DNA of 10,016 bases from a virus. Taxonomy: Duplodnaviria > Heunggongvirae > Uroviricota > Caudoviricetes. A program made the translations under genes and the position numbers. Positions 2,711 through 10,016 of the stretch are shown here, in pieces. Numbering within the stretch: position 1 is the first letter of the stretch; the number at the start of each line of letters is the position of its first letter. Under the pieces are notes generated by a model that worked only from the letters and a program-made list of their open reading frames with translations, was not told the origin of the DNA and ran no database searches. The DNA lies in IMG/VR virus record IMGVR_UViG_2529292830_000010. The stretch is one strand, 5' to 3'.

Positions 2711-2890
2711 ATGAAAAACGCATTGCAGTTTTTGTTTGTTGCGTTCTGGTTGTTCGTATCATGTATGCCCATCATCTTCACAGCAAGGTATATGGAAAAA
2801 GTTGATGTTTTGATATTAATATTTGGATATATAAATGCCCTTTTTTTAGGGGTGTTCATGGCGGTCATGTGCATTGAATACTGGCGGTAA
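2711..2890 (+). CDS. Small membrane protein with two predicted TM helices (59 aa)
   Basis: ATG at 2711 preceded by AGGAGG (2701-2706). Two hydrophobic stretches (LQFLFVAFWLFVSCMPIIF and VLILIFGYINALFLGVFMAVMCI). AT-rich island. Confidence 0.5.
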   Translation: MKNALQFLFVAFWLFVSCMPIIFTARYMEKVDVLILIFGYINALFLGVFMAVMCIEYWR

Positions 2891-2945
2891 ATACAGCGAA
2901 CTCCATTGGTTTAGTTGGATATTTATTGTGCTGGACAAAAACGGT

Positions 2946-2973
2946 TTGCGGGGAAATCTTAGTTAAGTAGAAT
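2946..2973 (+). promoter_or_regulatory. Candidate sigma70 promoter for the hok mRNA (-35 TTGCGG, 16-bp spacer, -10 TAGAAT)
   Basis: Hexamers at 2946-2951 and 2968-2973. Predicted transcript from about 2980 to the terminator at 3397 is about 420 nt, typical for hok mRNAs. Confidence 0.3.
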
Positions 2974-3091
2974 GACTGCGGGTGCTTGAGGCTATCTGCC
3001 TCGGGCATGAACACCAACGGCAGATAGAGAAAAGCCCCAGGTAACATTACGCGTCCTGCAAGACGTTTAACATTAATCTGAGGCCATATCT

Positions 3092-3151
3092 ATGCGACAC
3101 ATAGAGATTAGCCTCTTACGGACCGAAAGGTCAAGGAGAAGCAGGCTATGA
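3092..3151 (+). CDS. mok-like upstream ORF (19 aa) whose stop overlaps the hok start
   Basis: ATG 3092 with GAGG 8 nt upstream. TGA at 3149-3151 overlaps the hok ATG at 3148-3150. Confidence 0.3.
   Translation: MRHIEISLLRTERSRRSRL
3105..3134 (-). promoter_or_regulatory. Candidate sok antisense promoter (minus strand: -35 TTGACC, 18-bp spacer, -10 TAATCT)
   Basis: Reverse complement of 3129-3134 and 3105-3110. The predicted antisense transcript would start near 3098 and cover the mok start and SD (3079-3094), as expected for Sok. Confidence 0.3.
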
Positions 3152-3303
3152 AGCAGCAAAAGGCGATGTTAATCGCCCTGATCGTCATCTGTTTAACCGT
3201 CATAGTGACGGCACTGGTAACGAGGAAAGACCTCTGCGAGGTACGAATCCGAACCGGCCAGACGGAGGTCGCTGTCTTCACAGTCTACGAACCTGAGGAG
3301 TAA
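3148..3303 (+). CDS. hokD: Hok family type I toxin (51 aa), HokD/RelF-like
   Basis: Translation MKQQKAMLIALIVICLTVIVTALVTRKDLCEVRIRTGQTEVAVFTVYEPEE is near-identical to my recollection of E. coli HokD (RelF). Single TM helix plus the conserved C-terminal Cys-containing periplasmic tail. Confidence 0.85.
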   Translation: MKQQKAMLIALIVICLTVIVTALVTRKDLCEVRIRTGQTEVAVFTVYEPEE

Positions 3304-3373
3304 GAGACTTGGCGAGGGAGAAATCCCTCGCCACCTCTGATGTGTCAGGCATCCTCAATGCACCCGCACTTAA

Positions 3374-3397
3374 CCCGCTTCGGCGGGTTTATTTTAT
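3374..3397 (+). terminator. Rho-independent terminator at the hok mRNA 3' end
   Basis: Stem CCCGC / GCGGG with loop TTCG, followed by TTTATTTTAT. Confidence 0.6.
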
Positions 3398-3579
3398 CTG
3401 TAAATATTTTTATAAAAATAATGCCCACACACAGCATAAAACAAAAAGTATCACAGATAAAAAAGGAGCGTAATGTGCAGATTTGTTGTTTTCCATATTT
3501 ACTCACTTTAACATAATCAATATTGATATGGTTGTTGTTTCGGTGGTTTCAAACGAGATGTTATGGTGATCTGGTAAAA

Positions 3580-4041: not shown

Positions 4042-5090
4042 GTGCGGGTATTACTTCGACCTGTTCTGGTACCGGAACTCGGGCTGGTGATCGTTAAGCC
4101 GGGCCGTGAATCCATGCCGGTATTCCACAATACCCGGTTACTGGTGGAGCCGGAACCGAAAAGCATGCGTAATCTGCCGTCCGGGGTCGTTCCTGCCGCT
4201 CGCCAGCCGCTGGTGGAAGACAAAACATTGCTGCCGTTTTTCAGTAACGCACGGGTGATTCGTGCTGCTGGTGGTGCTGGTGCATTGTCTGACTGGCTGT
4301 TGCGCCATATTAAATCCTGCCAGTGGCCACACGGCGATTATCATCACAGCGAAACCGTCATTCACCGTTATGGTACCGGCGCAATGGTGTTGTGCTGGCA
4401 CTGCGACAACCAGCTGCGTGACCAGACATCCGAATCACTCGAGCAACTTGCTCATCAAAACCTGTCAGCATGGATGATTGACGTCATCGGTCACGCAATA
4501 AGCGGTACGCAGGAGCGTGAATTATCTCTGGCTGAATTATCCTGGTGGGCGGTCCGCAATCAGGTGGCGGACGCGCTACCGGAAGCGGTATTACGTCGTT
4601 CGCTGGGGTTGCGTGCGGAAAAATCCGCTCAATGTACCGTGAAAGCGACATCGTACCGGGAGAGCAGACCGCCACCAGCATACTGAAACAGCGCACAAAA
4701 AATCTTGCGCCGCTGCCTCACGCCCACCAGCAACAGAACCCACCACAGGAAAAGACGGTGGTCAGCATTGCCGTTGATCCTGAGTCTCCGGAATCTTTTA
4801 TGAAACGACCTAAACGTCGCCGCTGGGTTAACGAGAAATACACACGCTGGGTGAAGACACAGCCGTGTGCGTGTTGTGGTAAGCCAGCCGACGATCCCCA
4901 TCACCTGATTGGTTATGGTCAGGGCGGAATGGGGACAAAATCTCACGATATTTTCACGCTACCGCTGTGTCGGGAGCATCACAACGAGCTTCATGCGGAT
5001 CCGCTGGCGTTCGAAGAAAAGCATGGTTCTCAGGTTGATTTAATTTTTCGTTTTCTTGATCACGCCTTTGCAACTGGCGTGCTTGGGTAA
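4042..5090 (+). pseudogene. DUF968 (YdfU-like) protein gene split by a frameshift at an A5 run (4619-4623); would encode about 349 aa if repaired
   Basis: Two overlapping ORFs (4042-4686 frame 1, 4545-5090 frame 0) that together match the DUF968 architecture. C-terminal part has the Cys/His-rich motif CACCGKP...HHLIGYG...CREHHNELH. Confidence 0.65.
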
Positions 5091-6438: not shown

Positions 6439-6514
6439 GGCCCTTTAGCTCAGTGGTGAGAGCGAGCGACTCATAATCGCCAGGTCGCTGGTTCAAATCC
6501 AGCAAGGGCCACCA
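6439..6514 (+). tRNA. tRNA-Ile (anticodon CAU, lysidine-type; ileX/ileZ-like), CCA encoded
   Basis: Cloverleaf folds by hand: acceptor GGCCCTT/AAGGGCC, T-arm GCTGG-TTCAAAT-CCAGC, anticodon loop CTCATAA. Near-identical to recalled E. coli ileX. Confidence 0.9.
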
Positions 6515-6614: not shown

Positions 6615-6688
6615 GCGTTGTTAGCTCAGCCGGACAGAGCAATTGCCTTCTAAGCAATCGGTCACTGGTTCGAATCCAGTACAGCGCG
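6615..6688 (+). tRNA. tRNA-Arg (anticodon UCU)
   Basis: Acceptor GCGTTGT/ACAGCGC, D-arm GCTC...GAGC, anticodon arm ATTGC-CTTCTAA-GCAAT, T-arm ACTGG-TTCGAAT-CCAGT. CCA not encoded. Confidence 0.85.
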
Positions 6689-6801
6689 CTATATTCATTC
6701 TTCCAGATTCCTTCCGGCAGAGCCTTATACTGAAATATACCTGGCTCAGGATATTGTTGAAAATATTTTATGTTTGTCAAAAATAAAAGTTCTGTTAAGT
6801 A

Positions 6802-7602: not shown

Positions 7603-7938
7603 TTATGGACTTTGTTGTTTTAGTCCATAAGGACATATTTGCAGAGTGCAACGGTTATTAAAGCATTCATTCAATACGTTATCTGTATTTGTAGGACATT
7701 CCTGGCTGTTTTTGATTAAATTCCAGAATGTTTTATTGAATGGTACTACGTTGTAAATGGTTACAGGTAGCACTTTGTTATTGAGCATGATACCTGTGTG
7801 AGTCAGTGTAAATATACTTTCAGGAGGTAAGAAAGCATCCGATTGATACCAGATTATTAATTTTATTTTACTCCATATGACTGAAAAAGATATTCCGCAT
7901 GATGGCTGGATAACTGTATCAATCACAATCCACTTCAT
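7603..7938 (-). CDS. Hypothetical moron protein (111 aa), AT-rich, Cys-rich C-terminus
   Basis: Minus-strand ATG (7936-7938) with AGGAAG RBS. The stop is embedded in an 11-bp perfect inverted repeat (7601-7611 / 7622-7632). About 30% GC, unlike the flanking phage genes. Confidence 0.45.
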
Positions 7939-9328: not shown

Positions 9329-9649
9329 ATGAACGCAAAAATCAGATACGGCCTGTCGGCTGCCGTTCTGGCACTGATTGCCGTCGGTGCGCCCGCGCCT
9401 GATATTCTCGACCAGTTTCTGGATGAAAAAGAAGGTAACCACACAACGGCATACCGCGATGGGTCCGGCATCTGGACCATCTGTCGGGGTGCCACGATGG
9501 TGGATGGAAAACCCGTTTTTCCCGGTATGAAACTGTCGAAGGAAAAATGCGACCAGGTCAACGCCATTGAGCGTGATAAGGCGCTGGCATGGGTGGAGCG
9601 CAATATTAAAGTACTACTGACCGAACCACAAAAAGCGGGTATAGCGTAA
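9329..9649 (+). pseudogene. R: SAR endolysin (phage-21 R-like GH24 lysozyme) truncated after about 106 codons by IS insertion
   Basis: N-terminal Ala/Gly-rich SAR segment (YGLSAAVLALIAVGAPAP). Catalytic spacing E-x8-D-x5-T in EGNHTTAYRDGSGIWT. Reading frame ends at a stop formed at the IS boundary (GCG|TAAGCG), roughly 60 codons short of a full lysozyme. Confidence 0.8.
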
Positions 9650-10016
9650 GCGACTCGTCAGAACCGTATTGATATTTACTGAGAGCTCAGATCAACTTTC
9701 CAGGGCAACAGATCGCGTACCCGGTTTGCCGGCCAGTCCTGGATATGTTCAATGACGTAACGCAGCCACTTTTCTGGCTCCACATTGTTCAGACGGCATG
9801 TGCCGATCAGCGAGTACAACACCGCCGCATGTTCACCACCGCTGTCGGAACCCGCGAACATCCAGTTTTTCCGGCCTACGGCCACTCCCCGTAAGGCGTT
9901 CTCTGCGATGTTGTTGTCGATTTCCACCCAGCCATTACTGCAGTACACGTTCAGTGCATCCCACTGTTTCAGCAGGTATGCGAACGCTTTTGCCGTATCT
10001 GAGTGACGCGACAGTG
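9646..10016 (-). mobile_element. IS66-family insertion sequence, one end only (element continues beyond window end)
   Basis: Terminus begins GTAAGCG at 9646 (characteristic IS66-family end) and the element encodes an IS66-type transposase C-terminus on the minus strand. Confidence 0.8.
9676..10016 (-). CDS. IS66-family transposase, C-terminal portion (N-terminus outside window)
   Basis: Minus-strand frame open to the window edge. Translation ...HSDTAKAFAYLLKQWDALNVYCSNGWVEIDNNIAENALRGVAVGRKNWMFAGSDSGGEHAAVLYSLIGTCRLNNVEPEKWLRYVIEHIQDWPANRVRDLLPWKVDLSSQ matches the conserved C-terminal region of IS66 transposases. Confidence 0.85.
   Translation of the reverse strand, partial: LSRHSDTAKAFAYLLKQWDALNVYCSNGWVEIDNNIAENALRGVAVGRKNWMFAGSDSGGEHAAVLYSLIGTCRLNNVEPEKWLRYVIEHIQDWPANRVRDLLPWKVDLSSQ

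Follow-up and report, generated by a model that had tools for sequence, protein, structure and literature searches.

We predict with high confidence that positions 2946-3397 of a 10,016-nucleotide (nt) stretch of viral DNA (IMG/VR record IMGVR_UViG_2529292830_000010; the whole stretch is called the window below) hold an intact hok/mok/sok type I toxin-antitoxin (TA) cassette of the hokD/hokW subgroup, which would be transcribed and encode a toxic product. The cassette very probably is a moron, running from promoter to terminator, that sits in the nin region of a defective Qin-like lambdoid prophage found in Escherichia coli. All the parts expected of a hok/mok/sok locus, in sequence and in predicted structure, lie in this interval, the antisense unit as a candidate (Table 1). 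An earlier note, made from the letters of the window alone, had listed most of these features and proposed a complete locus; all of the features it listed are present, at the positions it gave or within a few bases of them. Family models, RNA folding, covariation and a comparison with E. coli K-12 support its reading.

The toxin open reading frame (ORF) matches Pfam HOK_GEF (PF01848; E = 2.6e-22, 78.6 bits against a cut-off of 22) and PHROG 251, "MokW-like host killing" (2.8e-32). Its match to the NCBIfam Hok subfamily falls under the cut-off (45 vs 73), and an identical protein is named HokD in RefSeq. The predicted product is one residue apart from K-12 HokD (A46V, 50/51 identical), which bears out the proposed match to HokD/RelF. 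Toxicity of the HokD coding sequence (CDS) has been reported (bioRxiv 10.1101/2025.08.07.668861). When PADLOC defence-system models were run against the window toxin, no families matched; this says little on function, because the library appears to be without a Hok model.

Table 1. Coordinates of the predicted elements of the hok/mok/sok cassette in the window
Feature	Position	Strand	Details and basis
Putative hok/mok promoter	2946-2973	+	−35 TTGCGG (2946-2951), 16-nt spacer, −10 TAGAAT (2968-2973); read directly; same hexamers in phage 933W
Predicted full-length hok mRNA, ~418 nt	2980-3397	+	Rfam leader model starts at 2980; terminator at 3372-3389; minimum free energy −174.9 kcal/mol
tac element, mRNA 5′ end	2980-2991	+	GGGTGCTTGAGG; folding and covariation
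Predicted Sok antisense RNA, ~68 nt	3031-3098	−	Short 5′ segment, long hairpin, U-tract; ends placed by position relative to annotated 933W sokW
ucb (upstream complementary box, anti-Shine-Dalgarno of mok)	3032-3040	+	Folding, covariation
mok Shine-Dalgarno	3080-3083	+	GAGG, 8 nt upstream of the mok ATG; read directly; sequestered by ucb in the full-length fold
mok leader ORF	3092-3151	+	19 codons (MRHIEISLLRTERSRRSRL) and TGA (3149-3151) overlapping the hok ATG (ATGA); ORF read
Putative sok promoter	3105-3134	−	−35 TTGACC (3134→3129), 18-nt spacer, −10 TAATCT (3110→3105); conserved block in homologs
hok Shine-Dalgarno	3133-3138	+	AAGGAG; K-12 hokD homology starts here, at 3134
hok (hokD-type) toxin gene, 51 amino acids	3148-3303	+	Pfam HOK_GEF; RefSeq name hokD
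CTACGAA with Tyr47 codon	3285-3291	+	Codon TAC (3286-3288) in TACG context; TACGAA invariant in 32 homologs
3′ untranslated region stem-loop	3311-3332	+	GGCGAGGGA-GAAA-TCCCTCGCC; seen in minimum free energy folds
fbi (fold-back inhibitory) element	3353-3365	+	CCTCAATGCACCC; folding, shuffles, covariation
Intrinsic terminator	3372-3397	+	7-bp stem (5 G-C pairs, 3372-3389), loop TTCG, then the T-run TATTTTAT

The leader of the predicted mRNA is recognised by Rfam RF01794, which is named "sok" and models the hok mRNA leader; the full model (1-157) aligns with 2980-3150 on the + strand (100.8 bits against a gathering threshold of 59). The earlier note had pointed to complementarity between the 5′ and 3′ ends of the transcript, like the fold-back pairing of hok mRNAs, and had named RNA folding among the ways to check its reading. 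The predicted fold of 2980-3397 contains this long-range pairing. The minimum free energy (MFE) structure pairs 2980-2991 (tac) with 3353-3365 (fbi) with one bulged U (z = −8.0 vs shuffles), and the pair probabilities of the tac/fbi helix in the full-length fold are 0.90-1.0. The isolated tac/fbi duplex has a predicted energy of −21.1 kcal/mol, vs −12.5 ± 2.2 for dinucleotide shuffles of the 3′ untranslated region (UTR), of which only 4 in 2,000 reached it. The fbi site is the best site for the tac 12-mer anywhere in the 10-kb window.

Covariation supports the same helices. Pairs were counted explicitly on an alignment of 32 diverse homologs (Escherichia, Kluyvera, Citrobacter, Photorhabdus, Pantoea, Erwinia and Kalamiella). 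In the fbi helix 89.6% of cells are paired, vs 38-52% after the partner is shifted 1-3 columns, and compensatory changes occur at 5 of its 12 pairs, including in other genera; the fourth fbi pair, for example, changes from U-A to C-G in Photorhabdus, Pantoea and E. tracheiphila (L128). The mutually exclusive tac helices are 95.1% paired with six compensatory pairs, and the tac/ucb helix is 96.8% paired. The presence and arrangement of the elements, their conservation and this covariation are direct observations.

The predicted folds also pass through the alternative states of a hok mRNA. In the full-length MFE structure, ucb (3034-3040) pairs with the mok Shine-Dalgarno (SD) region (3078-3084). 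For the leader alone the MFE structure is tac/ucb, with 3032-3038 paired with tac. In the first 40 nt, tac is paired with 2998-3008 in a predicted metastable hairpin of −19.0 kcal/mol. The 3′-truncated RNA (2980-3350) folds with the metastable-type 5′ hairpin and not with tac/ucb, so that the predicted energy balance between these states is only tentative. As predictions joined with covariation, the folds reproduce the states of the plasmid R1 model as summarised in PMC9841398.

At the 5′ end of the predicted transcript, the hexamers of the promoter put forward in the earlier note are present, though as a weak consensus match (the −35 agrees at only 3/6 positions). In each distant homolog with a long enough alignment row, a −10-like hexamer lies about 6-9 nt 5′ of the conserved GGG(T/C)GC end, in sequence that is otherwise unrelated. 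At the 3′ end, the proposed terminator is there as a hairpin followed by a T-run, and it is the sole terminator-like site in the region. By analogy with the R1 model (PMC9841398), the stem-loop at 3311-3332 is likely the protective 3′ hairpin of the processed mRNA.

The mok-like upstream ORF, said in the earlier note to end on the hok ATG, was found as described. Across about 125 fetched loci (L001-L130), the mok ATG is kept at −55 to −58 from the hok ATG in the large majority, in different genera, and all three mok frames relative to hok are in use. In ~95 loci mok is in frame with hok, the annotated state of mokW; 19 loci are of the window type, with a 19-codon mok whose stop falls on the hok ATG; another 6 use the third frame, in which mok overlaps hok and which we take to be the R1 type. 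The window type appears to be recurrent and not a single lesion, since different indels place the mok stop on the hok ATG in hokD-type loci, in hokC-type loci (E. ruysiae, E. whittamii) and in Erwinia/Kalamiella loci. R1 mok likewise has its first 19 codons 5′ of the hok start; stop codons placed there abolish Hok, and translation past the hok start is dispensable (PMC9841398). Because these mutagenesis data fit the window arrangement, we read the short mok as probably functional, with coupling to hok by termination-reinitiation.

On the minus strand, the earlier note had placed a convergent promoter able to make an antisense RNA over the mok start. Conserved −35 and −10 elements are seen there, in a block CTCCTTG(A)CC…GTAAGAGGCTAAYCT that is kept in homologs from Escherichia to Erwinia, and the position of annotated sokW suggests a start near 3098. 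In sequence, the predicted Sok RNA is complementary to both the SD and the start codon of mok. It folds at −23.5 kcal/mol (a slightly longer version has z = −3.9), and its 5′ segment forms a weak 3-bp hairpin in the MFE fold. In the related hokW-sokW system, mutations in the sokW promoter (Fig. 1E: −10 region) relieve repression of HokW toxicity, and repression is partly restored by sokW in trans (PMC8621323). A literature search for "sokD" gave nothing relevant among the matches listed.

Among the closest known systems, K-12 hokD (relF) is the third gene of the relBEF operon in the cryptic prophage Qin. This is the same prophage type as the window, and hokD occupies the same slot, upstream of DUF968/ydfU and Q. 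From the hok SD through the CDS and the fbi-bearing 3′ UTR to the terminator, K-12 shares 97.3% identity with the window, over 3134-3390 only. K-12 has relB-relE directly upstream and is without the promoter, tac, ucb, mok and sok, whereas the window has all five, the promoter and sok as predicted elements, and no relBE. The homology thus begins inside the hok SD, in agreement with the statement that K-12 hokD follows relBE without regulatory elements of its own. A tblastn search with K-12 RelB and RelE found no match in the window, so the cassette is not attached to relBE and does not have the relBEF arrangement.

The whole window is 100% identical to the complete chromosome of E. coli NCCP 13717, where it lies in a Qin-like prophage. 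Of 5,426 complete E. coli genomes, 3,410 (63%) carry the leader (2960-3147, counted at ≥80% coverage), some in as many as six copies. The identity to a complete genome and the number of genomes with the leader exclude an assembly error. With RelB and RelE absent and K-12 homology starting only at 3134, a mis-assembled locus or a variant of K-12 relBEF, in which hok would be expressed solely behind relBE, is extremely improbable, and nothing was found in its favour.

The K-12 relE-hokD junction was found in 1,167 of the 5,426 complete genomes (21.5%), which makes the intact form about three times as frequent. Of 80 IMG/VR loci, two alone (L061, L065) have the K-12-type arrangement. K-12 hokD as a regulator-less passenger of relBE is a minority, derived state. 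The contrast with K-12 that the earlier note implied is not new: most complete E. coli genomes have the intact form, and homologous mokW, hokW and sokW are annotated in the 933W record. The surprise arose because K-12 served as the reference.

The mokW/hokW/sokW locus of Stx2 phage 933W and of Sakai prophage Sp5 has ~91% nt identity to 2926-3375, and all three genes are annotated. HokW is 47/51 identical to the window Hok. The two loci share the promoter hexamers, tac, ucb, fbi and the sok promoter block. They differ in mok, which in 933W shares the frame of hokW (annotated with 70 codons) and in the window is out of frame via a 2-nt deletion and a 1-nt insertion. They also differ in the 3′ end after fbi (the aligned 933W segment has no homologous terminator), in the Sok-target loop (CUGA in 933W, CGACA in the window) and in their position in the phage genome. 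Takada et al. 2021 showed that hokW-sokW is a working type I TA system; they reported that HokW is toxic and that RNase III and Hfq contribute in part (PMC8621323). After mitomycin C, in a RecA-dependent manner, sokW RNA vanishes and HokW accumulates in the inner membrane, and with the locus present about twice as many Sp5 phages are released (PMC8621323).

The hok/mok/sok locus (parB) of plasmid R1 has the architecture predicted for the window and the same alternative structures (metastable hairpin, tac/fbi, ucb/mok-SD, tac/ucb), and in R1 as in the window 19 codons of mok precede hok. In R1, mok is presumably out of frame with hok. The R1 system is plasmid-borne and has a demonstrated role in post-segregational killing. 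R1 mok is a 70-amino-acid ORF that overlaps the hok CDS (PMC9841398), whereas the window mok ends at the hok start. Sequence identity is low (HokW is 44% identical to R1 Hok; PMC8621323). The hokC/mokC/sokC (gef) loci belong to the same family and have the same leader, with 76% nt identity (L096-L103) and a mok start at −56 or −57. Their Sok-target hairpin region is shorter, with an 18-nt deletion relative to the window, and they lie in the core chromosome and not in a prophage.

The hokD/hokW clade appears to be constrained. All 88 of its 88 CDSs are intact, with 9, 6 and 17 variable sites at codon positions 1, 2 and 3. Mean pairwise identity over the 88 loci is 98.4% for the CDS, 90.6% for the leader and 90.9% for the 3′ UTR, and drops to ~58% right outside −175 and +250, a value taken as background for this scoring. 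Because identity drops at the transcript limits, the unit of conservation is the promoter-to-terminator cassette, a pattern expected for a mobile moron under selection.

Two Photorhabdus loci carry tandem hok copies a few hundred bases apart (L112, P. temperata, at 1501 and 2131; L120, P. khanii, at 1110 and 1501), consistent with the clustered hok/sok loci noted for this genus (PMC1635323). E. coli-type hokD with 91-93% nt identity to the window also appears on very short non-enterobacterial contigs: L099 (Acinetobacter idrijaensis, 275 nt), L104 (Xanthomonas pisi, 431 nt) and L130 (a metagenome-assembled genome). These are most likely assembly contamination and not true hosts.

Following the plasmid R1 paradigm, we infer how the cassette would be transcribed, processed and translated into a toxin. 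A weak constitutive promoter would drive a hok mRNA that is stable and ~418 nt long. While it is being transcribed, its 5′ tac would be locked in the metastable hairpin, and in the finished RNA tac would pair with the 3′ fbi, leaving ucb free to sequester the mok SD, so that full-length RNA would escape both translation and binding by Sok. Gradual trimming from the 3′ end would remove fbi and allow tac to pair with ucb, which would make the mok SD and start accessible. As long as the short-lived convergent Sok RNA (~68 nt) is made, it would pair over the SD and start of mok, forming a duplex that would then be destroyed. Once Sok is no longer made, ribosomes would translate the 19-codon mok, terminate at the TGA on the hok ATG and initiate hok. 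The predicted Hok is an inner-membrane peptide of 51 amino acids that would depolarise and kill the cell.

Several observations weigh against an active cassette. No promoter on either strand of 2850-3450 passed a strict sigma-70 scan, so that our promoter calls rest on position and homology and not on consensus strength. Both promoters are weak consensus matches; that of sok has an 18-nt spacer and a −10 matching at 3/6 positions, and fails the scan. The predicted Sok-target loop CGACA (3095-3099) contains no U and no YUNR U-turn motif. Franch et al. are said to have found in 1999 that this motif is important in the Sok-target loop. The loop is CUGA in hokC as in 933W, and several other natural alleles are also without YUNR, so the motif is not universal in the family. 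Full Hok toxicity may depend on editing by TadA, because residue 47 is Tyr and not Cys; the CTACGAA around its codon is presumably equal to the anticodon loop of tRNA-Arg(ACG) that TadA recognises. The host prophage itself is defective, with a frameshifted DUF968 gene and an IS66 insertion in the lysozyme gene. A recent preprint summarises Tyr-to-Cys recoding by TadA that enhances HokB toxicity, with "a similar phenomenon" in hokC/D/E, and reports that chromosomal hokA, hokB and hokC loci do not mediate post-segregational killing (bioRxiv 10.1101/2025.08.07.668861). Weak promoters, a loop without YUNR, a Tyr47 that may require editing and an already decaying prophage would all fit a locus that is structurally intact but physiologically silent, kept by hitch-hiking and by the recent spread of prophage mosaics, with no killing or stabilising in a single chromosomal copy. 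The intact CDSs with mostly third-position variation, the fall of conservation to background exactly at the transcript borders and the compensatory changes in both alternative helices speak against such a locus. One chromosomal copy of R1 hok kills when Sok is missing (PMC9841398), and hokW-sokW is active from a single-copy prophage (PMC8621323). We consider a silent locus improbable.

For a functional cassette, the most likely role by analogy would be killing or lysis released when sok transcription stops, such as upon prophage induction or loss of the element. Addiction, phage exclusion and induction-coupled lysis are candidate roles, of which the last has the sole direct experimental support in a close homolog. 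The earlier note suggested post-segregational killing or abortive infection; hokW-sokW, the one close homolog studied by experiment, instead turned out to promote lysis and phage release upon prophage induction (PMC8621323). The module could be mainly a lysis helper and not an addiction or abortive-infection system: induction would silence or out-compete sok, and the released Hok would give faster lysis and phage release, as the loss of sokW RNA, the appearance of HokW and the doubled Sp5 release suggest. The cassette shares its strand with RusA, Q and the early genes upstream, and so runs in the direction of the early-right (pR→Q) operon in which it lies; no terminator-like site separates the upstream genes from hok, and the viable phage mEp460 uses the same slot. 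With this orientation and no upstream terminator-like site, read-through on induction could, speculatively, interfere with sok. However, hokW lies elsewhere in Sp5/933W, past the late genes, and the operon-context argument is therefore our own and not taken from the Sp5 study. Transcriptional interference remains a supposition, and the present copy cannot currently serve productive lysis because IS66 disrupts the lysozyme gene. We put forward a main role as lysis helper as a tentative proposal, at somewhat less than even confidence.

The surroundings of the intact cassette are those of a lambdoid prophage. Upstream of hok lie dicB, ydfC, ydfB and ydfA, and the + strand encodes DUF977, hokD, the frameshifted DUF968, RusA, antiterminator Q, two tRNAs, a holin and a lysozyme. 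In the viable lambdoid phage mEp460, hok occupies the same nin-region slot, among replication genes, rem, DUF968, RusA and Q. The DUF968/ydfU-like gene (4042-5090, +) is split into overlapping ORFs at 4042-4686 and 4545-5090 and is a frameshifted pseudogene in RefSeq. The C-terminal end of an IS66-family (ISCro1) transposase (~9650-10016; ORF 9676-9948, −) interrupts the lysozyme gene and leaves a 106-amino-acid stub (9329-9649). In sister strains, the lysozyme gene is intact or IS21/IS66 insertions lie elsewhere in the prophage.

Two tRNA genes are found directly 3′ of Q (6439-6514 and 6615-6689, +). ARAGORN calls the first tRNA-Met (CAT) and RefSeq calls it tRNA-Ile, presumably of the lysidine-type CAU; the second is tRNA-Arg (TCT). 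We take this pair to resemble the rare-codon tRNA set of Stx-type lambdoid phages. Between the tRNAs and the lysis genes there is a full-length match to the Rfam small RNA STnc100 (RF02076; 7388-7577, +; 132.4 bits against a gathering threshold of 47), opposite the iraM gene region. The ORF at 7603-7938 (−), in a late-region moron island, is annotated in RefSeq as the anti-adapter IraM, an RpoS stabiliser, and has no Pfam match.

Elements of this kind are already known, and in effect so is the cassette itself; its identification is correct but ordinary. The hok/sok locus is a textbook type I TA system, earlier work has described both the enrichment of hok in prophages and the near-identical hokW-sokW, and there is little new biology here. 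The window is only mildly unusual, in its short out-of-frame mok allele and in its target loop without the YUNR motif. The practical value lies in annotation. In these prophages RefSeq marks only the hokD CDS and gives the leader no annotation, so that thousands of genomes have no annotation for the mok ORF and the predicted Sok RNA. A large survey of Hok, recently posted, states that mok was not part of its analysis (bioRxiv 10.1101/2025.08.07.668861). A joint explanation of the mok alleles and the sokW data, which we offer as a rather unlikely one, is that the recurrent, independently arisen short mok would be no defect and would mean that delivering ribosomes to the hok start, here by termination-reinitiation, is all that matters, and that read-through at induction would collide with the convergent sok promoter, switch Hok on and account for the loss of sokW RNA. 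The conserved mok start together with the use of all three frames amounts to a small natural experiment, and it agrees with R1 mutagenesis that mok translation, and not the Mok peptide, is what matters.

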